DNA of 64,000 nucleotides from Eukaryota sp. GEM-RC1 (taxonomy: Eukaryota). The translations under genes and the position numbers were made by a program. The stretch is taken from NCBI GenBank assembly GCA_040285855.1, contig JAUFOQ010000003.1, positions 930,001 to 994,000 on the forward strand, read 5' to 3'. The notes under the pieces are model-generated. The model was given only the letters and a program-made list of their open reading frames with translations, ran no database searches and was not told the DNA's origin. Of this stretch, positions 13,061 through 55,029 are shown piece by piece. How positions within the stretch are numbered: position 1 is the first letter of the stretch; every line of letters begins with the position of its first letter.

Positions 13061-16000
13061 TTAACCTTCATAAGACCACGAGTCTGAAGTGCTAGATCTG
13101 GAGTATACCCCAGCACCATGTTGGCCATATACAGAATTAAATCCACCTGGTATAGATGAATCTTCCATTGAGACACCAGCACCAATTTCAACTCGAAGAA
13201 CTGGATTCTCTGCAAAATCATTCATCCCAAGACTTTGCAAGCTATTTGGAAACTTTAGTGACTCAATAGAGTTTTTCATAAATGCACCACCAGTAATTAC
13301 CTCAAGAGACGATCCAAAAGTCACAGTGGTAAGACTGTTCTCATGAAACGCAAGCATTCCAATAGTTATCAAACTGTCTGGGATAACTAACTCCTCAATA
13401 GCATTTTGGTCAAATGCCCAGTGTCCAATGGTTGTCAGTCCGTTTCCAAAAGAAACACTTACCAACTCTTTGTTGCTATCAAATGCATGTTGTCCTATGG
13501 TGAGAACTGTGTCCGGAATGACGACAGAAGATAATCTCCTGTGTTGGAAAGCAAGATCGCCAATTGCTTTAATTTCAACACCATTGATGCTAGATGGGAT
13601 TATTAGGTTTTGCTCGTATTCAGAAATAGTGTTATTGACCATAGTTAAACCATGTTGAATTAATGAAAACGACTCAGTCTTAGAACTGTCTAGTTGTACT
13701 GTAAGAGTTCGATCATAGTAATCAGAATGCATCAAAGTGAGTTCATAATCACCAGGAATCAGATCAGCAAGTAGAACGTAACCTTCCTCATTTCCATCAA
13801 CAATCAAATCTTGATTGAGCTGAACACGGGAATTGGAAATTGGTTCAGAAGTGAAATCGTCATAGATAAAATATTCCAACGAATACAAAGTAAGACTAAG
13901 AGAAACATCAATCGACTCGTCATTGTCAGACACTGTGACATTGACAGACTTTGTATCGTAGCCCGCAAGTTCAAAAGTGAGTTCATAAATCCCATTAACA
14001 AGCGGCTCAAGCTCAAAGTAGCCGTCAGCATTAGAGTAGACGTCATCAAAATCATCACCAGAGACAAGAACGTCAGCAAGTTCATCCGAATCAGTAGTGA
14101 TTGTTCCAGATACAACAAAGGTATTTAATGATAGAGAAACATCAATCGACTCGTCATTGTCAGACACTGTGACATTGACAGACTTTGTATCGTAGCCCGC
14201 AAGTTCAAAAGTGAGTTCATAAATCCCATTAACAAGCGGCTCAAGCTCAAAGTAGCCGTCAGCATTAGAGTAGACGTCATCAAAATCATCACCAGAGACA
14301 AGAACGTCAGCAAGTTCATCCGAATCAGTAGTGATTGTTCCAGATACAACAAAGGTATTTAATGATAGAGAAACATCAATCGACCTGTCACTGTCAGACA
14401 TTGTAACATTGACAAACTTTGTGTAGTAGCCCGCAAGTTCAAAAGTGAGTTCATAAATCCCATTAACAAGCGGCTCAAGCTCAAAGTAGCCGTCGGCATT
14501 AGAGTAGACGTCATCAAAATCATCACCAGAGACAAGAACGTCAGCAAGTTCAACCGAATCACAAGTGACTGTTCCAGATACAACAAAAGTATTTAATGAT
14601 AGAGAAACATCAATCGACTCGTCATTGTCAAACACTGTAACATTGACAGACTTTGTATCGTAGCCCGCAAGTTCAAAAGTGAGTTCATAAATCCCATTAA
14701 CAAGCGGCTCAAGCTCAAAGTAGCCGTCAGCATTAGAGTAGACGTCATCAAAACCATCACCAGAGACAAGAACGTCAGCAAGTTCAACTGAATCAGTAGT
14801 AACTGTTCCAGATACAACAAAGGTATTTAAGGACAAAGAAACATCAATCGACTCGTCATTGTCATACACTGTAACATTGACAGACTTTGTATCATAGCCC
14901 GCAAGTTCGAAAGTGAGTTCATAAATCCCATTAACAAGCGGCTCAAGCTCAAAGTAGCCGTCAGCATTAGAGTAGACGTCATCAAAATCATCACTATAGA
15001 CAAGAACGTCAGCAAGTTCAACCGAATCAGTAGTAACTGTTCCAGATACAACAAAGGTATTTAAGGACAGAGAAACAACAATTGATTCGTCTTTGTCAAA
15101 CACTGTAACATTGACAGACTTTGTATCATAGCCCGCAAGTTCGAAAGTGAGTTCATAAATTGCGTTAACAAGTGGCTCAAGCTCAAAGTATCCTTCAGCA
15201 TTAGAGTAGACGTCATCAAAATCATCACCAGAGACAAGAACGTCAGCAAGTTCAACTGAATCGCTAGTGACTGTTCCAGATACAACAAAGGTATTTAATG
15301 ATAGAGAAACAACAATTGATTCGTCTTTGTCAAACACTGTAACATTGACAGACTTTGTATCATAGCCCGCAAGTTCGAAAGTGAGTTCATAAATTGCGTT
15401 AACAAGTGGCTCAAGCTCAAAGTATCCTTCAGCATTAGAGTAGACGTCATCAAAACCATCACCAGAGACAAGAACGTCAGCAAGTTCAAGTCCAACCGAA
15501 TCACTAGTGACTGTTCCAGAAATAAGGAACGTCTTTGAAGTGGATGAACGTAAGAGTAGGAATAGCAGAGCAGCCAAGATTACAAGAATAAGACAAGTGG
15601 CAGCAGCATCTATAGCGGTATCTAGTTTACCCCTAAACTTCTTCTTCAACTGAGCAAAGGAGAAGAACGATATTCCACCTCAGGCTCTGCTTTAATAAAC
15701 AATACAACATCTTCAATAGATTCAGCCTTTGCATTTAGATCCTTGGTGTTTCTATCTAGTTTCTGACCATCCGAAGTAGTACAATGATTTGATTGAAGGA
15801 AAGTATCATTTTGGTCAAACCCATGTTCACAAGTAACAAAGGCTTTAGTGGAAGGATCAATTGTGATAGCTGGTTGGTGGATATCATTGATGAGAAGACA
15901 TTGAACTTTCAATTGAATGGGGTCAGTTGGAAGCTTTTCAGAGACTTTCTGTACATAGAGTGATAGTTGTTCCCTTGGATCTTGAGGAATGACATGGTTC

Positions 16001-16529
16001 AAGAATTGGAGGAGATTTTGATAGCCATTGATTAACATTTTCAATTTGGTTACGTCCAACTTTTCTGATTCAGCAAGTCCAATTTCTTCAGCAATGTCGG
16101 ACAAGTCCTGAGGAGAAACTCCGAATACTACAGAGGAATAAGTCTCAATGAAGAGACGGTAACATTGGTAGACAAATAGAGGATCAGTAACGAGGGCAAG
16201 ATTCTGAGCAACTTCATCGTTGAAACCAATGTTAAGAACTAGTGTGAGATGAAGATCGAAAAAATGACACACCAATGTGATTACAAGGAGAAGCGGTAGT
16301 ACTCTGATTGACGGCAAGGAATAGAAAGTTTGCAGATGAGTTTAACTGATATCCTGTTGTTGTTTCAAGGTTTTGCAAACGCTTTGACAGTTCATGAGTG
16401 GAATAACATTCATCAACAGTTCGTGGAAGGGGAAAAGAAGAGATCTGGAGTAAACGCGAACGTCATGACATTACATACAGGAAGCTCATAGAAGAATTGT
16501 GGAACCAAAAGGGAAAGTGGCTCATCCAT
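13061..16529 (-). CDS. Type II membrane protein, copy 1: PPDK-derived N-terminal domain, TM, 7+1 carboxypeptidase-regulatory-like beta repeats, BspA-type LRR
   Basis: ATG 16529; introns 16445-16478 and 16239-16272; A3 versus A4 frameshift at ~15657 relative to copy 2. VLNIGFNDEVA..YQCYRLFIETYSSVVFG..IPQDPREQL matches the PPDK N-domain; IPDSLITIGMLAF-type LRR_5 repeats. Confidence 0.8.
13885..15530 (-). repeat. Coding tandem repeat, 7 x 234 bp (78 aa)
   Basis: The unit VVSGTVTxDSVELADVLVSGDDFDDVYSNADGYFELEPLVNGIYELTFELAGYDTKSVNVTV recurs with a 234-bp period. Confidence 0.95.
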
Positions 16530-16898
16530 TGTTGATGAAAGTTGCGGTTGTACATTGCTTTCCATCTACATTGTAGATGTTTGTTTCTACGCTTGACATA
16601 ACACATTATGGGTGGGGTAAGATGTTTACTTACTATGCACAACTATGCAAAACAAACAGTCGTACCAACATTCCTTACTGTGACAATCAATCACAAACAA
16701 CTGGAACATACCACTTCTACGAGAACCTTCTATAAGTACTATAACCTGTTCAAACTTCACTTCAATGTTTTTCTTCTTGGTTTCGTTCGGTTTCAACAGA
16801 TGACGTGATCCTTCTCTATAACCACAAGGCGTATGCACAGGCATCGGAAAAACGGAATTGCCAATTAATTAATTGCAATAAGTACAATGAACTGTAAC

Positions 16899-17510
16899 CA
16901 GGCTTCACTAAAGTAGTAAAGTGATAAAGTGACTTTACTTTACTTTACTTTACTTTACTTTAAAATTTCGGAACGGTAAAGTGACAAACATCAATCTTGT
17001 TTATTTTGCTTTCTGAGCACAGTAAATAACTCTTTGACACCAAAAGTACACTATTATACGTGTTTTATTGTAGAAACTCACCAAAAACTGGAATGTAAAA
17101 ATGGAAAGCGGGCAATGGGTGAGCGCTTAAGAATATATCATTTTCACTATGGATCAACTTGGACCACATCTTCATATGGGTTCACTTCTTCAACTCGGAC
17201 CACATCTTCTTCATTCTCTTCTAGATCTTCATCAGACACTTCTTGGTCATCATCGTCAAATACAAAGACCACTTCCTCTGCTGGTTGCCAGTCGAAGAAC
17301 TGATTTGAAGGAGCTGTTCGGAAGGAAGGAATGTCATGGAAATCTATTTTCAATTTTCAGGAGAGAATGTATGGGAGAGGAATTGAGATTGGATCCAACT
17401 TTAATGTCCTTAAAGTAACTTTATTTATCAAAGTAAAGTAAAGCTTAAAGTAAAGTAAAGTACTTTACTTTACTTTAATTTTGAATTTTGGACTACTTTA
17501 GTGAAGCCTG
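16899..17510. mobile_element. hAT-family MITE
   Basis: 19-bp TIR CAGGCTTCACTAAAGTAGT; 8-bp TSD ACTGTAAC (16891-16898, 17511-17518); TACTT/AAGTA subterminal repeats. Confidence 0.93.
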
Positions 17511-18119
17511 ACTGTAACTGGCCAGAAAAATGGGAGGGGAATTAATTTAGTAATTTATTGCAATTATAACAGATGGGTCAAATTTATGAAATTAATAGAA
17601 GTTACACTGCGTACAAGCAGAAAAACTCCACAAATCACTTCCCTTATCCTTAATCTCTTCTTTGCTTCCTTTACTTACCGACAATCTAGGAACTTCAATT
17701 TCTTTAACAGTTTGAAAATTGAGCAACCGAAAAGATTCATGGATCTATCCGTTTTCAGGCGACTTCTGTTGAAGTGGAATGCCTGTTTAGTCGAGTACAT
17801 TGCGTGATTGGACTGGTATGAATCTATCAATGTCGCTCTTTACTATAATTGGCATTTATTTTATTGGGGTTCTAAGTGTGTGCAAATTCAAGGCAAAAAG
17901 TTGTACATTTACTTATCGAGTCCATTTCTTTGGGGTAGCGAATAGACACTGTCTTTCTTACTGTTAAAAAATGCGAGAGAAATCAGGTACCTAAAGGAAC
18001 GATGACAAAGGTCTTGTATAGAATTTACAAGGACAAGCAACATAAAAAATGAAGATGATTAATGTAAATCAAAATTGGACTGTGACGAAAAGAGATGATT
18101 TGCAATATATCTACTCACC

Positions 18120-20097
18120 TTAACCCTGAAAAGACCATGAACCTGAAGTACCAGTTCTGGAGTATACACCGGCGCCGTACTGGTTATAAACAGTGTTAAA
18201 TCCTCCTGGTATGGATGTTGAGACCATATCAACACCGTTACCGATTTCAACTCGTAGTACAGGATTAAGATGAAAAGCATAGAGTCGAAGTACTTGCAGA
18301 CTGTGTGGGAACACAATTGACTCAATAGAGTTGTGAGCAAATGCATAACCGGAAATGGATTGAATTGAGTTTCCAAAAGTCACAGATACCAGAGCATTGT
18401 ACATGAATGCATACATATCAATCAACACCACATTGTTAGGAAGTACTAATTCGACGATTCCATTTGATGTAAATGCGGACAATCCAATACTTGTAATCCC
18501 ACTTCCAAGAGTAACACTGCGCAAATAATGGTTAGAATTAAAAGCGTTTCGTGCAATAGTATGAACAGTGTCTGGAATAACGACAGCAGTTATTGACTGA
18601 TCTGAAATAGCATATTCACCAATTTCATTTACCTCAGCATCATTAATACTGGCTGGAATTATCAGGTTTACATCATAGGATGAAATTGTGTTTCCAGATA
18701 GAGTAAAAGGGTGTTGTCTTAATGAAAACGACTCAGTCTTAGAACTGTCTAGTTGTACTGTAAGAGTTCGATCATAGTAATCAGAATGCATCAAAGTGAG
18801 TTCATAATCACCAGGAATCAGATCAGCAAGTAGAACGTAACCTTCCTCATTTCCATCAACAATCGAATCTTGATTGAGCTGAACACGGGAATTGGGAACT
18901 GATTGAGATGTGAATTCATCATAGATATAAAGTTCTAATGAAACCAGTGTAAGATCAAGAGAAAGAACCAAAGACTCGTCACTGTCAGACACTGTAACAT
19001 TGAGATACTCTGTATCGTAGCCTGCAAGTTCGAAAGTGAGTTCATATATTCCATTATTAAGTGGCTCAAGTTCAAATAGACCTCCAGCATTGGAATAAAG
19101 ATCATTATCAGTATTAAAAACGTCTGAGCAGACGAGAGCACCCAAGATAACCAGAATAAGACACGTGGCAGCAGCAGCTATACCAGTATCTCGTTTACCC
19201 TTAAACTTCTTCTTCAACTGAGCAAAAGGAGAAGAACGATATTCCACCTCAGGCTCTGCTTTAATAAACAACACAACATCTTCAATAGATTCAGCCTTTG
19301 CATTTAAATCCTTGGTGATTCTATCTAGTTTCTGACCATCCGAAGTAGTACAATGATTTGATTGAAGGAGAGTATCATTTTGGTCAAACCCATGTTCACA
19401 AGTAACAAAGGCTTTAGTGGAAGGATCAATTGTGATAGCTGGTTGGTGGATATCATTGATGAGAAGACATTGAACTTTCAATTGAATGGGGTCAGTTGGA
19501 AGCTTTTCAGAGACTTTCTGTACATAGAGTGATAGTTGTTCCCTTGGATCTTGAGGAATGACATGGTTCAAGAATTGGAGGAGATTTTGATAGCCATTGA
19601 TTAACATTTTCAATTTGGTTACGTCCAACTTTTCTGATCCAGCAAGTCCAATTTCTTCAGCAATGTCGGACAAGTCCTGAGGAGAAACTCCGAATACTAC
19701 AGAGGAATATGTCTCAATGAAGAGACGGTAACATTGGTAGACAAATAGAGGATCGGTAACTTGGGCAAACTTCTGAGCAACTTCATCGTTGAAACCAATG
19801 TTCAATACTAATGTGAGATGAAGATCGAAAAATGACATACCAAGGTGATTACAAGGAGAAGCGTTGGTACTCAGGTTGACGGCAAGGGATAGAAAGTTTG
19901 CAGATAGGCATAACAGCTGTTCTGTTGTTTCTTCAAGGATTTGTACAAACTGGGTCAGTTCATGATTGGGACAACGATCCACCAGAGTACTTGAAAGGGG
20001 AAAAGAAGAGATCTGGAGTAAATGTGAACGTCATGACATCACATACTGGAAGCTCACAGAAGAATTGTGGGATCAAAAGGGAAAGTGGTTCATCCAT
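18120..20097 (-). CDS. PPDK-like/TM/repeat/LRR family, copy 2 (short stalk, TM partly deleted)
   Basis: ATG 20097; introns 20013-20046 and 19808-19840; near-identical to copy 1 over the PPDK-like part; different LRR tail. Confidence 0.8.
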
Positions 20098-20140: not shown

Positions 20141-20320
20141 TAGAGTTGGACATTCCTGTCTAGGTTCCATTTCCATTTCCACTTCCACATTTCTTCATTT
20201 CCACTTCCACTTCCATATTATATTTCCATTCCATTTCCATTTCCATATTCTCAAGAAATTCCGTCTATTTCTACTTTCAGATGGAAATGGAAGTGTAAAA
20301 TGTGGAATTTCATTTCACAT
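20141..20320. repeat. TTCCA(T/C) repeat cluster, possibly a solo transposon end
   Basis: Starts TAGAGTTGG, followed by multiple TTCCAT/TTCCAC units and an inverted ATGGAA pair; no partner end found. Confidence 0.45.
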
Positions 20321-20650: not shown

Positions 20651-23600
20651 TTGAAACCGCCAAGTATCTTTCCGATATGTTTGCAACAATTGATTGACTA
20701 TTTTGGGAAACACTGTTGTATATTTTCACCAACCTTACTATTATCTTTACAGTCCCTTCCAAGAGTAAAAGAAGCATTAGATAGGGAAGTCATAAATAGC
20801 AAACACAATTCTTACGTTTGTTCAGTTAAAAGTCATATTTTCAGTGTTTATGTAATTATTGGAAAACAAACCAGTAATATATTTCAACTTCATCTAACTG
20901 CTCCTAGATATGATGTGTTCCCATTGGTACTTTCCCCTTCTGGAAATAATTTGAGAATATTTGGACCGTATTTTGGTCACATGTTTGATTGTTTTGCTAA
21001 TACTACCATTCAAATGTCGGGGTCTGCTGGTTTTGTTCAAGATTCAACTACTAATGACATTTTAATTTCCACTGGAGAATTAGTTGGACTTAAACACTTT
21101 ATTACCTACATTGAATTCACTTCTCAAATTATTCTTTATATCTCAATACCTATTACATCTCTACAAGCTTATAATACTTCTCTTGTTTGTTTTGTTAACC
21201 ATCCTTGTGAGATTGAAGTTTACAGCATCTATAATGAAGTTGCATTAACAGACTTCCAAGTATCTTCCTCTATTCCAAATTCTTTACAAATTTTAAATTT
21301 TGAAACATCTCCCTCCAGTGCTTACATTATGTTCATTTCTACATTGTCTGGAGTTGTTGATGACTTAGAATTATGTACTGAAGCAGGATGTTACCCTATC
21401 TCTAACTTACCTTTTATTGTTTTACCTATTTCAATTTCTCCACAATTTATTCAATGGTTCGGATCTAGTTTTGGTCATGAAATTTCTTTGGAAGCTGAGG
21501 GGATTCATTTCTATCAGCATTCAGCTATTGAAACTAGTATTATGTTTGGTGGATTGGTATCTTAACTATATAGTGTCGATGACAATATTGTTTATTTTAC
21601 CGTTCAAGTGACTTCAAGTGGTATTTTTCTGCTCTGGGACGGTCATATGATTCTACTTTTGATCTCAATTTACCTTTTGAAGTGGATCATTATCTTTTGT
21701 TCCACCTTCAATTCAAGTGAATTCTCGAACGGAAGTTCTTTTACTGAAGGAAATTTCCAACGTCTTTATTTCTCATGGTAGTCAAAAATGTTTTTGAAGA
21801 AGGCATCAAACGTCGTTCGATTATTTGGTTTTGGCCCTGTTATCACGTTACATCAATCATCGCAATCAATTAACATCAGCCTGGTTGCTGATCGGGTTGG
21901 TAGTCAGTTTCCATTTTTCTATGAAGTTGCTGTTCATCATTCTTTTGTGGTAAATTTTAACCACTACAACTACTCTATTAGTGCCGACTGTATTTTTAAA
22001 TTGTGAAATTTTGGATCAAAACTCTTTTCATGGATATCTCAGTTTATCTTATTTCAGTTTAAATCAAGGCGATTCTGTGTTTAAATTTCATGTACAATAT
22101 TTAGAGACTTCCTTTTCATTTGACTTACTTCGTGAAGTTGTTCTTCCACCTATCATTTCAATTGCTTCTTCTCTGTTTGTTTCAACCATTGATGATGTGA
22201 TTGTCCAAATTTCTGGTCTTTCACAAGGCCCCTTACTTTTCGAATTTCATATCAATAATTCAATATTTCATCCCGATCAAATTTTGCCATTGTTCAGTGA
22301 ATTTGCATCTTTTCCCTACTCTTACAATTACACCTTCAACATTTCGACTCTCAATTTTGATCAAGGAGAACGTCAATTACAGTGGACATGGCAAAACACG
22401 GGATTCAACATTCAAATTATGGGCAATACTACTGTATTTAATACAGCTTTTTTTAGCTCAAATCACGTCAGTGTTTATGAACCTCGTGACATCCGTGTTG
22501 AATTCAGTGGACTTCTTCACTCTCAGTTTAAGTGTGTTGTAGGTGGTATTTGATTTACATCAACAAATTCAAATTCTACACTGATTTGTAGAGATTTAAT
22601 TATTTTGACTTTTCAAGATATTATCCCTATACACGTTAACTATGAAGACTGGCTGGTTAATTCATTTTCAGTCCATGGTGAAGCCTTGTTGGAGGAATTA
22701 TGTTTCCTACTCGGTTCGCATCATCCACGAATTAAAAATTCTCATTTTATTTCAAATGTTTCTAGTGGCGTGGTTTTTGATGGATCTCGGTGCTGCAATG
22801 TTCATGTGTCTTTTTGTTCTGAATTTTTCCAATCTGACCAAACTATTTCAGTCAATTTTAATTCATCGTTCGACATTTTCAAAGTCGTAATGACTACAAA
22901 TTCCAGTTGACAGAGTTTTGCGTCCAATTTTCCATTTATGATCTTTGTCAACAATGAAATACTTTTTCCATCTGTCTCATGCAAACAAATTCCTAGCGGC
23001 TTTGCTTTTGCTTTGATGTGTGGAATAGATAACATTATTCCACATGTTAACGAAATTATTTGAATTCCTCTAAATGACATGTTTCTTTTAGAGCTGGAGT
23101 TGTACGGATATCAGTTATATACGTGTCTAACCCCTGTTGATGTCAACAAAGGAATTACATCATTGGAAGAAGAAACAGAAGAAACAACCAATTTAACAAT
23201 GGGAGATGAAATATCTACAAGTATTCAACAATTTCAAAATTACATCGCAACGGCGTCTCATCTCATTTCCGAGTCTCATCTCTCTTATTCTTTGTTCCTA
23301 GTTTCACCTAATTGTTTCCATGCTCAAGCTCCAGTTACTATTACTTTAACTCCTAGTACAGCTGTTGAATTGATTTTTGTTGAAAACTATTTAAAAATTG
23401 ATGCTAATTCATTGAACTTAGTGATCCCAGTACTTTGTATTGATTGTATTGGTTTTAGTGTGGACTCTTTAGGCAATTTGACAGTACACAATTCAACTGT
23501 CATTTGGACGTCCTTCGAACTATTTTCGAATGATTTGATCTTCTTTTCTATTTCCACATTCACATTTGGGCATTATTTCCTTGAACTTGAGTTCTTAGGT

Positions 23601-25177
23601 CAAACAGTTCAAACTAGTATCACAATTGCTCAAAAATTTGCTTATGTTTTAAATATTTCTACTTTTGAAGTTTTTGATTGCTCTAATCAAATGTTGTTTG
23701 ACAAAGCATGTACTTTGATTAAGCCATCCGTTTTCTTAAATATTCATCATGACTTTTTCACTTCTTCACGTCATGTGTCTCTCTCTAATGTAGTGACTAG
23801 CTCAAGCAACGATCAAGCCATCATCGTTGTTGTCGATGATATGCTCGAAGTCATCTCATATCCACTTCAATCAATGACGATAACACTGTCGTATTTCGCT
23901 CAATTTGAAACTGTTAATCTTTTGACAAATGATTGCCGTTTTCCGAAATTAAATTCTCGTGACAGATGTTTATGTTCCAAAGGCATGGAATTTAATTTTC
24001 TTGGTGAATGTGTTGAGTGTTCTTTAAATTATTATTCAAATTTAGAATTTAATTCAGAGTGTAGATCTTGTCCTTTTCCTAGAATCACTCTTCAAAAAGG
24101 TTCCAGTGATCTTGATCATTGTGTTTGTCCTTTAAACACTCTAGATTCGGTAGGTTCTTGTTTGCCTTGTCTTCATTTACCTGAATGTGGATTTGGGAAT
24201 TTAACTGGAATTGAACCTGGTTTCAGATTAAATACTGATACTTGGGAACTAGATGATTGTGTTTTTTGGTTCAATTGTCATGAGAATTCTTGCAGATCAC
24301 GTCATGCTTACGGTGGGTGATTTGTGTCAATATTGTACCAACAATGCTGTTTTTACCAGAATTTACTGTATTGAACCAGAATATTCTTGGTTCAAACTGT
24401 TTTTACTAATAGTGTTTATTTCCATTTTATTTGTTGCTGATAGATTAGCCATCAGTCTTTACCAGGCTGAAACTAGATTACAGCGTTTGAGATTGGCATT
24501 GTCCTCACTTACTTCATCAGAAGAAGATTATTGAAACGATATCCGAATTTCTCTAATATTTTAAATGTAATCTTGTTTATTTTACCCCCTATTTTCTTCC
24601 ACAGAGTGTCGATTTGGGTGATTGCAATTGAACTTATCTCTTCTATGTTCCATTTTGATTCATCATTGATTTTCTTTGTTTTTTTCTAGTATCACTTAGT
24701 GGAGTCTCTAGAGCTGTACGATCACGCATTTTTAGAATTTATAATTTCAATTAAAATCATAGTGTTTTTCTATTTGCAGCGGCACTCTGCTCTATCAACT
24801 TTTGTTTTGGGACATTGCTGGCTCATTTTTCTATTGAAAGACAATCCTTTTGGCAGTTTGTTTTGATGTGCTTTCACGTGTGTCTTTTAACATATGTGTT
24901 TGTTGTACAACTTTCTTCTCCGTATTTTTTGACACTGTTATGTTATTTCGTTGTCATTGTTGCTTTTTTTTGTTGAGTGCTTGTACCATTTCTTAATTCA
25001 AACTCTTATGTTAGTTGTTCTCATGTGTTTTTCCACTACCTCTTTAGAGGTAATTCTTTTGGCAGTTTCTATATTGTTCAGTATGTCGTATACCCTGAGT
25101 TTGTTCAAATTTCCTTGACGTATTTGATTTTTCTTGAAATTCATTATGTGGCATTCCACTCAAAATTGCGGCTTTGA
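20651..25177 (+). pseudogene. Fragmented large surface protein: beta-rich ectodomain, Cys-rich GCC2/GCC3 (ephrin-receptor-like) repeats, multi-TM tail
   Basis: Successive same-strand ORFs; CLCSKG..CVECSLNYYS..CRSCPFPRITLQKGSSDLDHCVC; hydrophobic fragments 24380-25177; several stops and frameshifts. Confidence 0.6.
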
Positions 25178-37673: not shown

Positions 37674-37800
37674 ACCACCGGATCTTCAACCTGTGAATTT
37701 CTCTTAAGATGAATTCCCCATAACGAATTATGGACATTCATCTACACTCACAGTGCACATGGGCTGTGGCGGTTCTATCCCTTGCGGGTCCGCCACTGTT
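37674..37800 (-). ncRNA. Candidate Fanzor omegaRNA scaffold overlapping the ORF 3' end
   Basis: Minus strand: GUGGCGG-A-CCC-GCAA-GGG-AUAGAA-CCGCCAC, then nested stems CUGUGAGU/AUUCACAG, AGAUGAAU/AUUCAUCU and CCAUAA-UUCG-UUAUGG. Position matches known TnpB/Fanzor omegaRNAs. Confidence 0.7.
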
Positions 37801-40153
37801 TCTGTTATTGAATCTTCATTGTTGTTTGTACTCTTTGCTGCTCTCTTCCGTCTTTCTTCAGCTAACTTGTCAGAGAAACACATTGGTCGATCCTCACCAG
37901 CGAGAGTACACTCAACAATCTTTAGAATATTCAAACAGCTATTGAAGTCTCGATTCCAGAGTTTATGACATTTTTTACAACGCACTAAACCCCAACACTT
38001 GAGTTCATCGGGCTCTTCCTGCCACAACAGCTTATCATCTTCGTCCTTCCAACTAGACCAATTCCTCAGCGCTGATAGACGATTTGCCTTCTTGTCAACT
38101 CTTCGCTTCTTCTTCCGGAAGTTTGGATCCTTGACTTTAAGGAAGGTTTCCGTTTCCCCTTCGTCATCGTTGTTCTCAGAACATTCATGGCACTGAAGAG
38201 ATGTCCTGAATTCGTTAACCAGAAGAACCTGATAGCCAGCTTTTTTGAACAACTTTCTCGATCCTTTCCCCATGGATGGAGGCTTGTATTTCCTATGCCT
38301 TGACTGACTCCAATCACCTATGGCCAACCACGTGTTGGTTGGATCTCCGTAAACTTGACGGAATCGATGGAGCATTTTACGTTCACTTTTTTCCTTGTAT
38401 ACTGATTTCCAATAGCTCCATTTGCGCCATTTAGATTGATGGTACAGAGACTCCATTCTATTTGCATACTTGTAGAATTGTTGGACGTACGCTTTGAATT
38501 TTGAAAAATTTGTTGTTTTGGAAGTAAATTCTGAAAATTCTGTCTGAATCTGTTCAGCTGTCAGTTGTCTTCCCGAAATTTCGTTAAAAGAATAGTTTTT
38601 GAAGGCTTGGTTCTGAAATACATTGTATTTTTTTTGTTTTCCTTCGTGCCTTCGAGTTCCTTGAGTATATCTCATTTTTTGAATTGATTTTTCTTTTGAA
38701 ATGGTCTCTTTTTACTTGATTTTTTGACCTCATTATTCTCTTTTTGGAACTGGGCTTTATGCCTTTTAATTTCTTTCAATCTCTTCTTTTCATATGTTTT
38801 TGAGATTTTTGGGTCAAGTGGGGAGCACAATGCCCAGGATTATCAATTTCTTCCTGGGTTTTTCTTCCAACCAAGTACAGAATATCCCATTGGTTAGGGT
38901 CCCCCACCACGACTTTTTTTATTTTTTAAATCCTCTAATTTTTCAGGATGTAAATCTTCCACATACTCCTCTTTTTCCTCCGGAGACTTGGCAGAGTATG
39001 GTTTGAACAGTAGATCATTTCTGGTCATCATGAGACTGATGGATTCACCATTGGTGGTTATCTGGTGACCAAATGAATACATCTTTTGAAGGTGTTCAAG
39101 TATTTGTGATCAAGATTCAAATACTGGCTCCAAATTTGATTTTTAAATAAATTAATGTTTTCGCTCAGATGTGTTAGATTATAACCTTGAACTTGAGGTT
39201 TAAATAATTTAATCATAGCCATCGTATCCAATCGAAGGTGATCAGGGATTAGGCTGGTGGATTGTGGAAACATACGGTACATCTTTGGTGGAATCTCATT
39301 ACAGGAAGGGTTATTCTCAATCAATTTGTTGAGAACGAAGGCCTCTGGTAAGAGCTCCAAAGGCTTTACCTTTAATTGGTATTTGAGTCCTTTAGAGTCT
39401 GGCTTAAAGCTTTTGACAAATGTAATGAAATTTTGATGTTCATCTGATGGATTTGCCAGATCTCGGTAAAATCAATATTGGATCCTCTGCCTTCTAAAAT
39501 TTCTTTAAGGATATTATTGTACAACTTTTGCAACTGGTCTTTTTCGACTTTTTTAAGTGCATTGTTTTTAATAATTTTTAGTTGTCCATTTAAATTAAAG
39601 AAGAGTTCCCATGTTTTTCCAAATATTCAATAAAATGGGATGAAATATTATTTTGATACATTGTAACAATCTCAGTAGCTGTGTAACTTAATGTACGAGA
39701 CATATCAGAGTACATGACATTGGGAATTTCCATATTCATGGGGAGAAGATGTTGGATATAGAAGCATCCCAATTGAATTTTCAAAGCATTGTGCTTTTTG
39801 CCTGGAGTACTTTGAACAATCTCAGTTACCCATTTAAGTATTTCACTTCCATCAATATTTTCCTCATTTTTAAATCTTTGATGAGCTAATGGAGACAAGT
39901 ATCCAATAGTCCAGAGCAATTGGTGGACACTTTCTTTGGTCCATTCTACCGGATTCAATTCCTGGTTATCAAAAGAGTTCATGCAAAAGCCTTGAAGTAG
40001 CAGCAATGCACGTTGTTTAATTCGGTGATGATTTATAGAAATTTCATTAACCAATAAGTTATTATCACTCCAAACAGATTTTAGGGTTACTTTAACCGTT
40101 TTTTCACCCGGGCATTTCAGCAATTCTTGTGTTTCGACTTGAAGGAAATACAC
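37728..40153 (-). CDS. Fanzor1 (TnpB-family RNA-guided endonuclease), frameshift-split
   Basis: KTVKVTLKSV; IVTMYQNNISSHF; YQLKVKPLELLP; FPQSTSLIPDHLRLDT; YSFGHQITTNGESISL; RuvC-I VVVGDPN (D at 38899-38901); IGDWS..MGKGSRKLFKKAGY; RuvC-II VNEFRTS; zinc finger CHEC..CKKC; RuvC-III WNRDFNSCLNI. Confidence 0.93.
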
Positions 40154-41648
40154 AAAAGGCTTTGTAATTCAACAATATCGTTAAAATGTTCACGTAAACA
40201 TTTCAAGTTTTGTTCAGATGTGAAATCTGTAGAAACTGGTGTGGGAACTGAATAACTTTCATTTTTTAAAATGTTCTTTACAACAGTAACCCAATTCAAA
40301 GATTTTCCAGTTCTAGGTCTGTAATAATTTCTAATAACACGACCCAAATCTATTAGCTGAATTTTTGAGTTTTTGAATTGTTTTAAAAAATATTTGTAAA
40401 AGAGAGGACACTGAATATTTGAACAATTCTCTGATTTTAAATTAAATTCATCCAACGTAGAACTTGCATCATAACCAATTATCAGACCACAGTCAGTTAA
40501 ATCTAAATAATCATTAAACGCACTAATCATAGATTCCTCTTGATTAAACGCTTGAACATTCACTCTAGCATGCTCAGAATTAGGTGACAGAACTGAATCG
40601 CAACTTTGTTGTGTAGTGAATATAATTGATTCTACAATTGAAATTACTTGGTCCTGTACCTGAACTGTTTGAGTGATAATTGATGTGATTATTTTTTTCT
40701 CTTTTTCCTTTTCAGTTTCTTTAGTAGCTGCTGAAGCTTCAATCATTTTTACAAAAATGCACTTAATCGAGTGTTTGTGATCTAACATTAAGGTTACGTT
40801 TTCGAAAGGATCTTTTCTTTTTTTAGACTTAACTGGTGATTCTTTTTCGTTTGTTTTTTCATTTGTTTTTACTGCCAATGGGCATTTTCTTATATCATGA
40901 CCAGTGTTTCTACACTTTGAACATTTACGCCCAATTTGTTTTTTCACCAGTTGGGGTTCGTTTTCATTATTATTGTTTGATCGTTTTTGTTTTCTTGGAG
41001 GCATATTGCTGACAGTGGCAAGCCTTTTTCCTGGATTAACGTGGCTGTCCAGTTTTAAGTTCAATCTGATACGAAATTGAGAGGGATCAAATTGATGATG
41101 CATAATTTCATTTTGAAAATCTGTCATCATTATACAGTGATCAATGTGACCAATTGTTTCAACGTTAAATGTCTTGAATAAAACTTCAATAAAATACAGA
41201 ACAAATATGCCACAATCATAACCATTGTCCTGTTTCACAGAATTAATGTGACAATGGTAAAAGTTGTTTGGGCAAAACGATTGTATAAAATCAATTTTTG
41301 AGGACAACAAATTACTATTAGAGATAGAATCCATGAAGTATAACGTTTCAGTCATGAAATCCATAACACATAGTCCCCAGTGAGTTCCAGCAAATCCGTC
41401 AATAATACCATTGTTCATGAGAATAAGAACAAGCCGACAATCTGCATTTTTTTCTCTTATATCATGATAAATAACGTCTTTCTCTAACGTTAGAAAGTTA
41501 AATAAATGATAAAATCCAATAGCTTGATTGGCGAGTGGGTAATCCAAACTGATATTATTTATGGAAAAAGAAGATGGAATAGCTCTAACCATTCACATTC
41601 AGACAACAATGTTATGTCTTCAAATTCATGTGAGTTAAATGATACCGG
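40117..41648 (-). CDS. Ulp1/SENP-family (C48) cysteine protease domain, CCHC zinc knuckle and linker; probably N-terminal part of the Fanzor polyprotein
   Basis: DITLL..EWL, GTHWGLCVMD, YFMDS, KQDNGYDCGIFVL (H-D-Q-C residues); CSKCRNTGHDIRKC at 40882-40923. Confidence 0.85.
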
Positions 41649-45307: not shown

Positions 45308-47795
45308 ATGGACCAATCAAGTATTGCTCACTTCCTCTATGAGCTGCGAGTTTGTAACATCATGACGCTCTCTCTTACTTCAGAATCCTCCAGTCCCTCT
45401 TTCTCAAACCCCAGACCAGCGTAAGCCCAGTGACGATCTGAACAAACTGGTTCAAATCCTTGAAACAACAACAGGACAACAGTTAGGCCCATCGGAGAAC
45501 TTTCTATTCCTTACCGTCAACCAGAGTACTATCACTTCTACATGTAATCACATTGGTATGTCATTTTTCGATCTTCATCTCACACTAGTACTGAACATTG
45601 GTTTCAACGATGAAGTTGCCCAAAAGCTGGCCCTCGTTACTGATCCTCTATATGTCTACCAATGTTACTGTCTCTTCATTGAGACTTATTCCTTCGTAGT
45701 ATTCGGAGTTTCTCCTCAGGACTTGTCCGATGTTGCTGAAGAAATTGGACTTGCTGGATCAGAAAAGTTGGACGTAACAAAATTGAAAATGTTAATCAAT
45801 GGCTATCAAAACCTCCTCCAATTCTTGAACCATGTCATTCCTCAAGATCCTAGAGAACAACTATCACTCTATGTACAGAAAGTCTCTGAAAAGCTTCCAA
45901 CTGACCCCATTCAATTGAAAGTTCAATGTCTTCTCATCAATGATATCCACCAACGAGCTCTCACGATTGAGCCTTCCACTAAATCCTTTGTTACTTGTGA
46001 ACATGGGTTTGACCAAAATGATGCTCTCGTTCAATCAATTCATGGTACTACTTCTGATGGTCAGAAACTAGATAGAATCACCAAAGATTTAAATGCAAAG
46101 GCTGAATCTAGTGAAGATGTTGTATTGTTTCTTAATGCTGATGCAATAGAATATCGTTCTTCGCCTTTTGCTCAGTTCAAGAAGACGTTTAAGGGTAAAC
46201 GAGATACTGGTATAGCTGCTGCTGCCACGTGCCTTATTCTGGTTATCTTGGGTGTACTGCTATTCCTACTCTTACGTTCATCCACTTCAAAGACTTTCCT
46301 TGTGTTTGGAACAGTCACTGGTGATTCAGTTGCTCTTCCAGGTGTTCTTGTCTCTGGTGATGGTTTAGATGACGTATACACTACTGAGGATGGCTTTTTT
46401 AGACTTCAGCCACTTGCCAATGGTGACTACGAATTATCCTTCGAACTCGTAGGTTATGTTCTTAAGTCAGTCAGTGTTACAGTGTCTGACAATGATAAGA
46501 CTGTTGATGTTTCTCTTTCCTTACATACCTTTGTTGTATCTGGAACAATCACTAGTGATTCCGTTGAACTTGCTGACGTTCTTGTCTCTGGTGATGGTTT
46601 TGATGACGTCTACTCTAATGCTGAAGGCTACTTTGAGCTTGAGCCACTTATTAATGGAATTTATGAACTCACTTTCGAACTTGCGGGCTACGACTCAAAG
46701 TCTGTCAATGTTACAGTGTCTGGCAGTGACGAGTCGATTGATGTTTCTCTTGATCTGCCTTCACTTCAACTTTATATATACGACGATCTCACTTCTGAAC
46801 CAATTCCCAATCCTAGTGTTAAGCTCAATCAAGATTTGATTGTTGATGGAGATGAGGACGGTTACGTCATCATTGCTGATTTAATTCCTGGTGATTATGA
46901 GCTCATTTTGATGCATTCTGATTATTATAATCGAACTCTTCATGTAGAAGTACAATTTTCCAAGATTCAATCTTTGTCATTGACTCGTCATGGATTTACT
47001 ATTGTTGGTGCCACTATTACCGCTTATGATGCTTCTGTAGGTATATCAGTATCTATTCCGGCATATGTCAATGGAGTTGAGATTACTGGAATTGGACCTT
47101 ATGCTTTCGCTTTTAAGAACTTAATTGCTGTTTCTTTTGCAGACAATATTTATTCTATCGGAATGTTTGCTTTTGCAGGCAACAACATTGACAGTCTTCA
47201 TTTTGGAAATGGATTAACAATCATTGGTCAAGATGCTTTCTCTACTAACTATGAACTAACAACAGTGGTTTTTGGTAATTCTCTCACTACTATTGGTTCT
47301 AATGCATTTACTTACACTTCTATCTCATCCATTGTCATACCAGACAGTGTCACGACCATCCATTTTACTGCTTTTTATTACAGTAACCTATCTTCTGTGA
47401 TTCTATCTGAGTCTCTTACTGAAATTAGTAAGGGGGTGTTTATAGGTAACGAATTAACAAGTATCACCATACCATCTTCAGTTACCAAAATAGGTGATTC
47501 AGCATTTCAAAATAATAAGTTGTCGTCAGTTGAATTTGGAAATTCTGTACAATTGATTGATGTTCAAGCTTTTTATCACAACTTGTTAGAGTCGCTGAAG
47601 TTTCCGGACAGCTTGGAACGAATTAATTCGGAGGCTTTTGCAAATAATCCACTGTTATCTGTTGAGATTGGTGATGACGTGACATCACTGGATGATTCAG
47701 CTATACCAGGAAATTTTAAATCTGAATATATTCAGACAGGGGCTGGCGTTTACTCTAGATCAAGTACCTCAGACGACTTTGCTTTTGAGGATTGA
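45308..47795 (+). CDS. PPDK-like/TM/repeat/LRR family, copy 3 (2+1 repeats, longer LRR)
   Basis: ATG 45308; introns 45350-45383 and 45556-45588; same domain order as copies 1 and 2. Confidence 0.82.
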
Positions 47796-47884
47796 TGTTT
47801 CTTTTCCCGTTCAGTATACATAATTCTTGTTTTCTTACTGAAGATTCAACCCTTTCCTCACTGGTTATTAGAATTTACATTCTA

Positions 47885-48360
47885 TTTCATCCGTTGTCAT
47901 TCCAAATGATGTGACCTCTATTGGTTCAAGAGCTTTCAGAAACAATGGATTGACATCAGTCATTCTGTCTGAATCTCTTGTTGACATTGAGAATTACCTG
48001 TTTCATGGGAATTTGTTGACTAGCATTGTCATTCCATCATCTGTTACTATGATAGGAGAAGATGCGTTTCGGTGGAGTTATTTGACTTCTATTGAATTTG
48101 GTAATTCTGTGCAATCCATACACACACGTGCATTTTATCAGAATGTCAATTTAGAATCGGTCAAGTTTACAGACAGCCTACAACACCTCTTTGATGAAGT
48201 CTTCACCTTGTGTCCCCTGTTAACAGTTGAGATTTCTGATGATGTTACAGTTGAACCAACTTCCATTGCAGGTCTATTCAAGCATGTATATGATGCAAAC
48301 CAAGGTGGGATTTACACTAGAGCAAGTACTTCTAACAACTTTGTGATTCAACAGGACTAG
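47885..48360 (+). pseudogene. Orphan BspA-type LRR C-terminal cassette
   Basis: Paralogous to the last ~155 aa of copy 3 (SVILSESL..IPSSVTMIGEDAF..GGIYTRASTS); no ATG, TM or stalk. Confidence 0.7.
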
Positions 48361-51360: not shown

Positions 51361-53208
51361 TCAATCTGTCATAATCCCACCTCCAAAAGGATACTCACCA
51401 TACTCAGGCCCCCATCTAAAGTCCTTCTTAGGATCAGTACCTTCAACAATCAACAAAGAATGCTCCAACACCTCCATTGCCTTGTTATTCATAAAGGGAG
51501 GTCTGGGAGCAAGTACTAGGTTTGATACCCCCGCACTGACCATTGCAAGTACTGCTGATAGGCATTGCTCTGAATGGTATAGACATAATGTCTTAATGAT
51601 AGAACTGTCGCTTATATCAGTTCCAAGAGACTTCGCAATTGAGGCAAGCGCACGAATACTAGAATCAATCGAGCTGTAATCACCACCATCAATGATCTTT
51701 GGCAACTTTCCTATAAAACGATCTCTAAACATCGTCAACAATGGCAATCTAACCGGGCCTAATGCTAATACGTACCAAGAAGACGGCAACGAGTCTATTA
51801 ACAAAGACAGATACTCACTTTCAGGTCCTGAAGAAGCAGCTTCACCAAAAACAAACAGAATATGAGAATCTGTATTAACAATGGTATTGATGAGTTCTGG
51901 TAGAATTCCACTTATAGAGATAACAGAAACCAATGACGAAACACGAGGCTTCAACAAGTTAGTTTCAGTCCTCACGGTAGGGGATGGGCTCATATGAGGG
52001 GTATAGTGTTTAGCAGCAAGCACCATTGGTTCCAGATCGATGAACCCTGTTGACGTCAGCAGGGGTCGATTAGCTCCTGGACAACTCGTCTCGTTGACAC
52101 AGTAGAGTGGAGGGTGTTCAATGAGAGGAAGGTTAGGTGGGGTGGGAGAAGAGGTGGTGACGACGACTCCACATACTGTAGTTAAGAGAGGAAGTACACG
52201 TGAATCACCCAGGTTAGCAAGTAAATGGCCCTTGAGAGCAGCGTATTGTCTAAAGTAACGATGACGATGTACTGACAGCAACTCCCCTGCAGTCACAACA
52301 TCAAGGTCGTTCTGATCAGCAAGTTTTAACACAGTATGAAGATCAGAGAAGTCATTCCCTCCAACCACAATAGTGTTTCTCCTGAGTACTACAGTTGGAT
52401 CAATCAGGGGAACGTGGAAAACTACCTGGTCTTTGTGGGTAACTGCATCAATAGCTGTGGAACCAAACCGACGATCAATTGTTTCTTCAAGACTAGCAAA
52501 TGCTCTTCGAAGTGCAGCACTTGTTTGATGTAACAAACGGATCATGTGAGATTCCTTCTCAGTAGCTAAGGCTTGAGGTAAGTCACTGAGGACACGTAGG
52601 TTAGCGTGGATGCTGTGAGTGGCGGCTGAAGAGTTACCAAGACGCATTAATCTTAGGGCTGTTGAAGCAAGGTAACGGTTAGAGAACAAGAGAAGATCGT
52701 AGAGAGGACCAATGGCTCCTTTGTTCATCACGTAGGTTGCTGGTTTAACAGATTTTCCAGTAGCCACAGCAGTTGTCATTGAGGAGACGTCTGGATCCCA
52801 ATTCATGTTAATGTATTGAGTGTTGGCGGAGAAAGGAATTCCTCTGGTATAGTGAGCATTTTTAACAGAATCGAACACGGTTTTGAGAGCAGCAAGATGA
52901 TCGAAGGCAAAGGAAGGATCAAAGGAGGCATCGGTGAGTTGAATGGCTTGACAGTTGAGAAAGGGTATGGCAAAACTATCAGAGATGAATGAATCTTCCC
53001 TTAAGAATTGGATGAGAAGAACAGATGTTGAAAGAATACCAACTTCTAGTGAATCAAAGAGTGCTTGTAGGTTGGAATCTTTACCACAAGTGCCAATGGA
53101 ATCGCAGCAAGCTCTACCAACCTGTAGTTGACGGGCGCGACTACATTGATGGCAGAACATTTGAAGATTAGGATTCTCACGATATAACACTTCAATATCG
53201 GTGCTCAT
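51361..53208 (-). CDS. Divergent hybrid cluster protein (HCP/prismane) homologue
   Basis: MFCHQC..CCDSIGTCGK N-terminal Fe-S motif; colinear degenerate motifs IVVGGND, VVTAGELL, LPKIIDGG and HSEQ..AVLAMVSAGVSNLVLAP. Confidence 0.8.
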   Translation of the reverse strand: MSTDIEVLYRENPNLQMFCHQCSRARQLQVGRACCDSIGTCGKDSNLQALFDSLEVGILSTSVLLIQFLREDSFISDSFAIPFLNCQAIQLTDASFDPSFAFDHLAALKTVFDSVKNAHYTRGIPFSANTQYINMNWDPDVSSMTTAVATGKSVKPATYVMNKGAIGPLYDLLLFSNRYLASTALRLMRLGNSSAATHSIHANLRVLSDLPQALATEKESHMIRLLHQTSAALRRAFASLEETIDRRFGSTAIDAVTHKDQVVFHVPLIDPTVVLRRNTIVVGGNDFSDLHTVLKLADQNDLDVVTAGELLSVHRHRYFRQYAALKGHLLANLGDSRVLPLLTTVCGVVVTTSSPTPPNLPLIEHPPLYCVNETSCPGANRPLLTSTGFIDLEPMVLAAKHYTPHMSPSPTVRTETNLLKPRVSSLVSVISISGILPELINTIVNTDSHILFVFGEAASSGPESEYLSLLIDSLPSSWYVLALGPVRLPLLTMFRDRFIGKLPKIIDGGDYSSIDSSIRALASIAKSLGTDISDSSIIKTLCLYHSEQCLSAVLAMVSAGVSNLVLAPRPPFMNNKAMEVLEHSLLIVEGTDPKKDFRWGPEYGEYPFGGGIMTD

Positions 53209-55029
53209 TGGTAGTGATGATGCGAATGAGAGAGATGTCTGTTAATGAACTCGAATCTCAAGCAGATATCTTCTAAAAATGTCGGAACAACATGATTGAT
53301 GTGTCAAAAGTATAGTATAGAGTGGTATTTGTTTAGTGTTAGGACAAAACGATCTACTGCTAGAGATAGAAGTGTTTCCAAATTCGATGTTCTTATCAAA
53401 ATTTGCAAATCATGAGTTAAAATACAGAACCGTGAAGACTACAACTCTCCACATGATTCTGAAAACATTCCTGTAATTTGGGGATTAGGTTATACAACGG
53501 GAGAATATTAAATTACTGGTGCCACCTGTTCCGATATGTTCAATTAAAGTGCACCACAGTCTAACAGTTGTACCGGTACTACATGTAGTAATACTATCAC
53601 TGAAGGAGTGTTCACAGTGAATATCAATTGTTGAAATAATTTCAGTGATTGAACTTATCAGTCCTTCCGGGAGGTTGTTGAGAAATATATTTTTATGCTG
53701 ATAAGAAAGTAGCAACATTATTGACGGCTCTTAAACAGGTGAAACCACGCAGTGATGTTCTCTTCATTTTTGTGGCTACTAAATGGAGGTTGGACTAACT
53801 GTGAACTTAATATCAGATGTCTCTCGTCGATCGAAGCCGATATAGCAACTACTTTGTGTAGTGCTGTTATAGAAAAGCTTTTCTATAATTCTAATTTTCA
53901 GATGAAACCTATGAGAATCAAAAAATTAAACAAGAATTTATGCATATTTGATGAACTACTGAGATACACTACTAAATAATGTGATAACGATGGTTTTTCT
54001 GTAATAGAGAGTTCTGATTAGCTAAACGGAATTTCTGCCTTTTTGTTTTGGTTTTGGCACTGAAAATCATAATTAAAGCGCATTATCCGAGATTGTCAGT
54101 GTGTCGTCGGAGGTGGCTGTATTTATCGTTGAGATACCTTTTGTCTGTCTTGATATTCCAGCAAGAATCGGAAATTGATGTATGAAAAAAGTCGAATCTG
54201 TTAAAATTGTCGACTTGAAAACCTATTTGAACTCTCAATCTACTGTACTTACGCCCAAAAAGTCCATCTTCAAGAACTCTTTTGCCACATCTGCTTCATC
54301 TCTTTGAAACTTTCTACAGTAGTTTCCCTTTTGTTGGTATTCCCTTGTCTTCAAATGCATTCTGTTCTAATATACACCCCAGTCGATCAATCACAATTGG
54401 TGCTTACTTGGATCTTTGACTGGACTACAATCCAATCAAACTGGATTTGGAAGCTTACTTATATGTGTTACAGTGTTAAGACTTATGTAAATTATACTTA
54501 GTCCTACTTTTTCACATTATTTATCTTCTGTTTCATAAACTAGAGTACCATCTCTAATTGGAACAAAAGGCATCATATGTGAAAGATAGATTTGAATTTC
54601 ATTTGGGACAAAATCACATATTCCTGAGCAGAGGTCTTATACTTACAGTGCATCAAGCTAATTGCTGTAGCACTGTTAAAAATCCCTGAAGGTTCTCACA
54701 CAGATAATAGTAAACAAGAATATCAACTTCGAACAGTGTATTATGCGCTCAGAGTGGAACGCTAAGTGACTGCTAAAATTGAAGTGGAACCACTTAGACT
54801 GGATGGATCGCAATCCCAAGATAGTGACAATACTCAACAAGGACTGATTTGTTTAACATATCCGCTCATTAGCAACTGTCATGCAACACTTTCTACATAT
54901 GAATCTTTAATTGCTACTTTGATTTCCAGTACTGAATGTAGACATAGATGAGGGTCAATCAAAGAACGATTTGCAGGAATTAGAACATAAAATTCTACAT
55001 GTTTTGTGTAGTAAACAAATCATTATTGA

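Follow-up and report, generated by a model that had tools for sequence, protein, structure and literature searches.

Eukaryota sp. GEM-RC1 carries a real multi-copy gene family that joins a fragment of pyruvate phosphate dikinase (PPDK), apparently catalytically dead, to a transmembrane (TM) segment and a BspA-like ectodomain with leucine-rich repeats (LRRs). Three members, g1, g2, and g3, lie within one window, the 64,000-nucleotide (nt) stretch at positions 930,001-994,000 of contig JAUFOQ010000003.1, and we analyzed them together with their relatives elsewhere. We read these proteins, with a probability of roughly 0.6, as type II surface adhesins or receptors in which the dead PPDK fragment is conserved as an adaptor or scaffold on the cytosolic side. 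The N-terminal ~280 residues, including the stripped PPDK fragment, would lie in the cytosol, and the C-terminal beta-sandwich and LRR parts would lie outside the cell, where they could bind ligands such as prey bacteria or particles (the host is described as bacterivorous). The pseudo-enzyme module would then serve a role in protein-protein docking, sorting, scaffolding, or signalling. Such genes may have originated when a 5' fragment of a PPDK gene became fused to a BspA-like gene, with the fusion duplicated thereafter.

A PPDK fragment at the N-terminus

An earlier note, made from the sequence of the window alone, had proposed three paralogues, and we located start and stop codons for all three at the boundaries that it gave (Table 1). 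Our exon models translate letter for letter into the deposited 'Eukaryota sp. GEM-RC1' proteins P0004 (g1), P0002 (g2), and P0001 (g3), the records of which are named 'hypothetical'. The three genes share a common layout, with an exon of 14-17 codons, a 34-nt intron, a 172-nt exon, a second intron of 33 nt (34 in g1), and one long exon; all introns have GT(A/G/T)TGT...YAG ends. Intron 1 must be removed to keep the frame in g1, g2, and g3, while the length of intron 2 keeps the frame in g2 and g3 but not in g1; its removal yields the spacing found in PPDK. The splicing inferred in the note is thereby borne out, with the spliced models containing LETTTGxQL, NFLFLxVN, NHIVLNIGFNDEVA, and IPQDPREQL. 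Most of the PPDK-like part (the portion after intron 2), the TM segment, the repeats, and the LRRs are encoded without a break in the last exon of g2 and g3. Because one exon spans both parts in these genes, the PPDK-LRR fusion is independent of splicing and is no splicing artefact. The window contains unbroken frames of 636 and 809 codons. Family introns make up five of the seven introns of 33-35 nt among 36 GT[AG]TGT...YAG candidates in the window, a census too small for a genome-wide statement.

Sequence and profile comparisons identify about 145 N-terminal residues as homologous to PPDK residues 62-214. When the unspliced N-terminus of g3 was searched against PDB sequences with phmmer (E<=10), 11 of the 13 matches were PPDKs (E 1.3e-6 to 0.03), the remaining two being S100 chains at E 0.6-0.8. 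A profile built from four family members matched PPDK in 11 of 11 cases in the same database (hmmsearch, best E 6.1e-10). In profile-profile alignment with hhalign, four members scored a probability of 98.9 % against nine PPDKs (E 1.6e-17), six members 99.5 % against 11 PPDKs and fragments (E 2.9e-22) and 99.6 % against 76 bacterial PPDK N-domains (E 6.7e-24), and eight members 99.8 % against the same 76 (E 6.4e-28). The probability thus climbs as divergent members join, and the span stays constant at family residues ~32-176, equivalent to PPDK 62-214 over 145 columns. The match to the PPDK nucleotide-binding domain proposed in the note stands for residues 62-214 only, with no sequence support for homology over any larger part of that domain.

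Within the aligned region, the helical sub-domain signatures VLNIGxNDE, YRLFIE, and IPQDPxEQL are strongly conserved in all eight members. Divergent members, in addition, begin with LPGFxYE/TTE, resembling the PPGFTVTTE of PPDK. For P0002 and P0014, the single-sequence models of the ESM Atlas match PPDK_N clusters with TM-scores of 0.56-0.60 over residues 14-233 and 3-248. Together with the LPGFxYE/TTE N-termini, these models suggest that the PPDK-like fold extends past residue ~176, although this is not settled. AlphaFold2 (AF2) run with 76 PPDKs in the alignment gave a predicted local distance difference test score (pLDDT) of 74-97 for residues ~33-180. A Foldseek search with this PPDK-aligned model returned PPDK at ranks 1-15 (E 5e-10 to 2e-8), the next match having E 0.25; this test is circular, because PPDKs stood in the input alignment.

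To assess the active site, we aligned six family members with 76 bacterial PPDKs in MAFFT. In the bacterial enzymes, per-position conservation is 89-100 % for the motifs GGKGANL, SVRSGA, SMPGMMDT, MQDMEFT, and LQTRNGKRT. All nucleotide-site motifs for which it reaches at least 97 % are lost or substituted in each of the six family members. In all six aligned family members, GGKGANL (the Lys loop, K22) is missing, VRSG is replaced by VNQS, VNLS, or VQKE, SMPGMMDT is replaced by SPCNHI or TISNAI, and QDMEF and LQTR are missing. PDB entry titles (1jde, 2dik) and mutagenesis work suggest that K22 and R337 are important for PPDK function. Loss of the VRSG arginine, as claimed in the note, holds for these six members and fails for P0142, the most divergent member, which alone retains the VR of VRSG as well as YRRF. 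Pfam detects neither the phospho-histidine domain (PF00391) nor the PEP/pyruvate domain (PF02896) in the family, which has the TM segment and ectodomain in their place, in agreement with the note. The motif and domain losses support the view that the PPDK fragment is dead, i.e., catalytically stripped. A candidate Cys-x-His metal site (CNH, CEH) was dropped, as both Cys are substituted in P0014/P0015.

The family is larger than the three copies first described. Word-based searches recovered four close members and two more at 42-43 % identity. We then searched 1.84 billion representatives exhaustively with a six-member HMMER profile, which gave 1989 matches at E<=0.001. Six of these reached E<=1e-30 and one reached 5.2e-29, and all seven are GEM-RC1 proteins; after a gap, the next matches, from E 1.7e-18, are ordinary PPDK-like sequences. 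No intermediates between the family and ordinary PPDKs were found among the 1.84 billion representatives. The new strong matches P0140-P0142 correspond to GEMRC1_001369, GEMRC1_002866, and GEMRC1_008257, and the most divergent subfamily is 29 % identical in the module. In total, the family has at least nine annotated members on six contigs and occurs in GEM-RC1 only, among the libraries searched. Among the ordinary PPDK matches, P0144 (a Logan record of 738 aa), whose nucleotide-site motifs are degenerate (GEKGAAL, VRCGC..SMSMRMEA) and which seems to be without the central domain, may represent PPDK decay that took place independently elsewhere.

Transmembrane segment and ectodomain

As the note had described, a basic patch (KKKFKGK, KKKFRGK, or KKTFKGK) precedes a single hydrophobic segment, with a Kyte-Doolittle value of 2.6-3.1 over 19 residues (Table 1). 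In the four close members, the net charge of the N-terminal flank of this segment lies between +2 and +5. In three of the four, it is +4 or +5 versus +2 or -3 on the far side; in P0004, both flanks are +2. No N-terminal hydrophobic signal was seen in the four close members. The ectodomain holds 0-1 Cys versus 4-8 in the N-terminal part, and NxS/T sequons fall mostly after the TM segment, with 1-3 per protein before it. The ectodomain of P0004 contains 151 Asp and Glu versus 23 Lys and Arg, and eight NxS/T sequons follow its TM segment. We predict an N-in/C-out (type II) orientation from the charges on the flanks, the sequons, the distribution of Cys, and the types of domain; a surface location is likewise predicted. 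Residues 3-8 of g1 and g2 (EPLSLL) fit the acidic dileucine consensus, which is discussed for the cytoplasmic tails of TvBspA proteins in the part of PMC2843621 drawn on here. Because EPLSLL is missing from g3 and other members, we give it little weight.

The acidic beta repeats with NVT sequons and the BspA LRRs recognized in the note correspond to CarboxypepD_reg and LRR_5, both of which score above curated Pfam cut-offs. The CarboxypepD_reg and CarbopepD_reg_2 matches in g1 reach E 7e-68 and cover seven stretches. In bit scores (PF13620 / PF13715, cut-offs ~32), these repeats reach 225 and 199 in g1 (7-8 stretches), 77 and 73 in g3, and 36 and 33 in g2, and their number varies widely among the paralogues. 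The ectodomain runs from CarboxypepD_reg-type repeats through a further beta-rich stretch to LRR_5. LRR_5 is also matched in P0140 and P0003; Pfam finds none in P0014, P0015, and P0142, the models of which are short. Beyond the family, the best ectodomain matches are bacterial LRR_5 proteins, with 28-46 % identity over 28-70 % of the query and E down to 1e-105. Among the best 120 ectodomain matches, most of which have no source name, there was no further GEM-RC1-named protein, and none beyond the family contained a PPDK-like part.

Constraint on the module and alternative explanations

Several observations weigh against the interpretation of the family as surface receptors with a repurposed PPDK module. 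The Pfam PPDK_N model (PF01326) was unmatched in 10 of 10 family translations and proteins (thresholds E<=0.1, <=1, and <=0.01), and the deposited proteins therefore carry no PPDK annotation. Hence, the match of the N-terminus to PPDK_N expected in the note was obtained with family profiles, which match PPDK only, and with the ESM Atlas models, and not with the Pfam profile. Homology ends at about residue 176, the tail being unaligned in all four hhalign runs, and in a pairwise test the tail (~177-282) scored 25, below the mean of 26.8 for shuffled sequences, of which 1270 of 2000 did equally well or better. A MAFFT pairing of tail and PPDK motifs (LNAK..EDVV with NAQGEDVV; KGKRD with NGKRT) is treated as unproven. 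The AF2 pLDDT is below 50 for residues 190-282 even with the PPDK-containing alignment, and a model from the four close paralogues alone, at pLDDT 35, was unusable. Some of the gene models are also incomplete: deposited P0003, P0015, P0140, and P0142 lack the usual C-terminus, and P0141 is a fragment of 133 aa. In the deposited model of g1, a frameshift is bridged by the removal of 29 nt as an intron; this is implausible, and in g2 and g3 the homologous 30 nt code for protein (VEYRSSPFAQ). The shortened T-run at this site, missed by the earlier note, may stem from a Nanopore homopolymer error in assembling a multi-copy region or may be a genuine lesion; g1 may be a pseudogene or the source of a truncated soluble product. 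Gene conversion, instead of selection, could account for the low synonymous divergence (dS) in the module, and the counts behind the ratios of nonsynonymous to synonymous divergence (dN/dS) are small. Lastly, P0014, P0015, and P0140 have a weak basic juxtamembrane patch or none, which makes the orientation of these proteins less secure.

The gene-model defects raise the question of whether these are decaying chimeras, in which a PPDK pseudogene fragment landed upstream of BspA-like genes and was copied along with them, leaving young, unselected frames that gene prediction turned into models. The g1 frameshift, the P0141 fragment, an orphan LRR cassette at 47872-48360, and the truncated appearance of several deposited models fit such a history, and high nucleotide identity in the module could indicate recent copying. 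Nucleotide identity peaks at 98-100 % within the module and is lower on either side. Nei-Gojobori estimates for the core of g3 versus g1/g2 gave dS 0.14-0.19 and dN/dS 0.14-0.18 (sd 9-11.5, nd 6-6.5). Values for other regions were dS 0.04-0.15 and dN/dS 0.3-0.6 in the tail, dS 0.2-0.63 in exon 2, and dS 0.65-1.03 and dN/dS ~0.4 in the C-terminal ectodomain. The low core dN/dS speaks against decay, as do the unbroken frames of 636 and 809 codons and the conserved intron positions, at which splicing restores both the frame and PPDK-like spacing. The same architecture is retained in subfamilies that are 42-44 % and 29 % identical in the module, which requires long survival of open frames. The best-conserved block between subfamilies also sits within the module, with 49 % identity in the core and 53 % in residues 177-224 versus 26-27 % at the two ends. 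We thus consider decay an unlikely explanation for the family as a whole.

These data show that the cytosolic module is constrained and homogenised among copies, while the ectodomain diverges fast and changes its repeat number. Families of variable surface proteins typically show this pairing of a constrained module with a diverging, repeat-variable outside. A quick tree of the core, built together with 76 bacterial PPDKs, unites the family in one group (SH-aLRT 100) at the end of a very long branch, which supports a single origin. No donor can be named from this tree, because the sequences in it are bacterial only.

A second alternative, which we consider improbable to a similar degree, accepts a functional family and denies that the module is inert: it would bind nucleotide, pyrophosphate (PPi), or phosphate, or dock the cell's real PPDK, making the proteins metabolic sensors or anchors for PPi-dependent glycolysis at the membrane. 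The conservation of the three helical sub-domain signatures in all eight members compared, the VRSG arginine and YRRF of P0142, and the conservation of residues 177-224 to the same level as the core are what such activity might leave behind. These features have to be set against the loss from all six aligned members of the Lys loop, the Gly-rich SMPGMMDT loop, and the QDMEF/LQTR metal and phosphate motifs; the adenine-holding part of the ATP-grasp fold is likewise unrecognisable by sequence.

The third alternative concerns location rather than function. If the topology were reversed, the PPDK-like part would be lumenal or extracellular; alternatively, the proteins might reside on internal membranes such as those of the phagosome or endoplasmic reticulum. 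Divergent members without a clear basic N-flank and the 1-3 sequons before the TM segment leave some room for this, yet the charge difference across the membrane in three of the four close members and the lack of a visible N-terminal hydrophobic signal argue for the cytosolic placement. Moreover, the C-terminal part, which is acidic and Cys-free or nearly so and carries LRR_5 and CarboxypepD_reg, has the features commonly seen in exposed surface proteins of bacteria and trichomonads, as far as the part of PMC2843621 drawn on here describes them. We rate this alternative slightly below the other two.

A more specific idea, which we regard as a long shot, is that the stripped module keeps the surface that faces the swivelling phospho-histidine domain, or the phosphate/PPi site, and works as a docking or sensing device. 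Were this so, surface proteins would recruit or read out PPi-dependent glycolysis at the prey-binding membrane, providing a direct physical link between receptor and glycolytic enzyme made from the enzyme's own domain interface.

Genomic context, known systems, and significance

Table 1. Family features in the window, with positions counted from its first letter.
Feature	Position	Strand	Details
g1 gene	13061-16529	-	GEMRC1_007490, P0004, 1123 aa; ATG at 16529, stop codon 13061-13063; exon model equals deposited protein
g1 exons and introns	13061-16529	-	Exon 1 16479-16529; intron 16445-16478; exon 2 16273-16444; intron 16239-16272; last exon to 13061
g1 PPDK-like core	15931-16396	-	Residues 34-177; hhalign spans; split by 34-nt intron 16239-16272
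g1 frameshift region	15650-15678	-	T-run 15656-15658 one T shorter than in g2/g3
g1 TM segment	15551-15607	-	AAATCLILVILAALLFLLL; preceded by LKKKFRGK; hydropathy
g1 tandem array	13899-15520	-	234 nt x 6.9 copies, 95 % matches; unit is one CarboxypepD_reg-like beta-sandwich repeat with NVT sequon
g1 LRR_5	13205-13567	-	Best Pfam stretch; E 1.7e-25, 89.8 bits, cut-off 27.7
g2 gene	18120-20097	-	GEMRC1_007271, P0002, 636 aa; ATG at 20097, stop codon 18120-18122; exon model equals deposited protein
g2 exons and introns	18120-20097	-	Exon 1 20047-20097; intron 20013-20046; exon 2 19841-20012; intron 2 19808-19840 (33 nt, in frame); last exon 18120-19807
g2 PPDK-like core	19500-19964	-	Residues 34-177; hhalign spans
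g2 TM segment	19128-19184	-	GIAAAATCLILVILGALVC; preceded by KKKFKGKRDT; joined directly to partial beta-sandwich repeat; hydropathy
g2 LRR_5	18270-18626	-	Best Pfam stretch; E 1.8e-24, 86.5 bits, cut-off 27.7
g3 gene	45308-47795	+	GEMRC1_007946, P0001, 806 aa; ATG at 45308, stop codon 47793-47795; exon model equals deposited protein
g3 exons and introns	45308-47795	+	Exon 1 45308-45349; intron 45350-45383 (GTTTGT donor); exon 2 45384-45555; intron 2 45556-45588 (33 nt); last exon 45589-47795
g3 PPDK-like core	45432-45896	+	Residues 31-174; phmmer and hhalign spans
g3 TM segment	46218-46274	+	AAATCLILVILGVLLFLLL; preceded by KKTFKGKRDT; hydropathy
g3 CarboxypepD_reg-like repeats	46305-46757	+	Two repeats; Pfam
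g3 LRR_5	47352-47702	+	Best of two Pfam stretches; E 3.1e-46, 156.8 bits, cut-off 27.7
Orphan LRR_5 cassette	47872-48360	+	C-terminal LRR_5 cassette in 162-codon open frame; 77 nt after g3 stop

The window is eukaryotic in its content, with genes for RabGAP-TBC, RNA polymerase III Rpc4, the flagellar coiled-coil protein CCDC113/96, and TMEM43, at 33-43 % G+C. The orphan LRR_5 cassette, missed by the earlier note, shares 54 % identity with the final 158 aa of g3; neither a start codon nor upstream family sequence was found for it. We considered and rejected the cassette as an alternative 3' exon of g3, as the matching place in g3 has no GT donor. A frame of this length at such divergence is unexpected for a dead remnant. 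A GGAAAT/GGAAGT-type simple repeat (~20160-20290) lies directly upstream of the g2 start. Near the g1/g2 pair, a 418-aa frame (23064-24320, +) with an ephrin-receptor-like Cys-rich repeat (PF07699, E 2e-7) may, by its domain content, be another surface protein gene.

Other frames in the window include a 327-aa frame (37728-38711, -) that matches PF07282 (Cas12f1-like TNB / OrfB zinc ribbon, E 1.2e-7) and may represent a TnpB/Fanzor-like gene on a eukaryotic contig. Transposon-type genes are also present, with Ulp1 peptidase C48, hAT dimerisation, and zf-CCHC frames at 40117-41592 (-), 56085-56687 (+), and 56688-57446 (+). A 626-aa frame (51361-53241, -) has a weak match to the Prismane / hybrid-cluster protein (E 4.6e-15), consistent with an anaerobic lifestyle.

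LRR receptor pseudokinases combine an LRR ectodomain, one TM segment, and an intracellular domain of enzyme origin, devoid of catalytic residues and regarded as a scaffold. The GEM-RC1 family follows the same logic of LRR, TM segment, and dead enzyme; it differs in using an ATP-grasp fragment in place of a protein kinase and in its predicted type II rather than type I orientation, and the two are evolutionarily unrelated. Compared with PPDK itself, the family retains VLNxGxNDE, YRxFI, and PQDPxEQL over the end of the first sub-domain and the helical sub-domain, and its predicted models superpose on PPDK alone. Unlike PPDK, it is without the first ~30-60 residues that carry the Lys-22 loop and has lost the nucleotide-site motifs and the later domains. 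Bacterial LRR_5/BspA-type CarboxypepD_reg surface proteins share the Pfam modules of the ectodomain and, judged from Pfam lists, use other anchors, namely secretion signals, S-layer modules, and sorting domains of the type IX secretion system (T9SS) type.

The closest described counterpart is TvBspA, for which the portion of PMC2843621 used here reports 193 proteins with a TM segment, an N-terminal LRR part, a short C-terminal cytoplasmic tail (type I/III), and endocytosis motifs. Both are metamonad families with BspA-type (TpLRR / LRR_5) repeats predicted outside and a single TM segment, and both contain subfamilies with a conserved cytoplasmic part and an ectodomain whose closest relatives are bacterial. 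Set against that account of TvBspA, the order in GEM-RC1 is reversed, with a ~280-residue N-terminal part, predicted to be cytosolic, followed by the TM segment, repeats, and C-terminal LRRs. The cytosolic part is a folded enzyme remnant instead of a short tail, and CarboxypepD_reg lies between the TM segment and the LRRs.

By name, we equate the host with Skoliomonas sp. GEM-RC, which the sections of PMC11316075 consulted describe as an anaerobic, free-living flagellate that feeds on bacteria and comes from alkaline hypersaline lake sediment. They give its genome as an assembly of Nanopore R9.4 reads with Illumina polishing, in which RNA-seq guided the prediction of genes. The terms dikinase, PPDK, BspA, and leucine-rich are not mentioned in the main text of that paper or in the three supplements searched, and we found no description of this PPDK-TM-LRR architecture in the literature searched.

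The finding is one of lineage-specific domain co-option and has no bearing on a long-standing open question. Within that scope, the family would offer a clean natural case in which a fragment of a core metabolic enzyme has been recruited as an intracellular domain and kept under selection while the outside diversifies. Standard domain annotation is blind to this module, as Pfam sees the ectodomain alone. For BspA-like surface proteins, the combination of reversed orientation and a folded pseudo-enzyme inside would constitute a new architecture, and it occurs in a free-living bacterivore, whereas BspA-like families are mostly discussed for mucosal parasites. If the module has a partner, it would provide a pointer to how the surface is coupled to the interior in a little-studied metamonad group.

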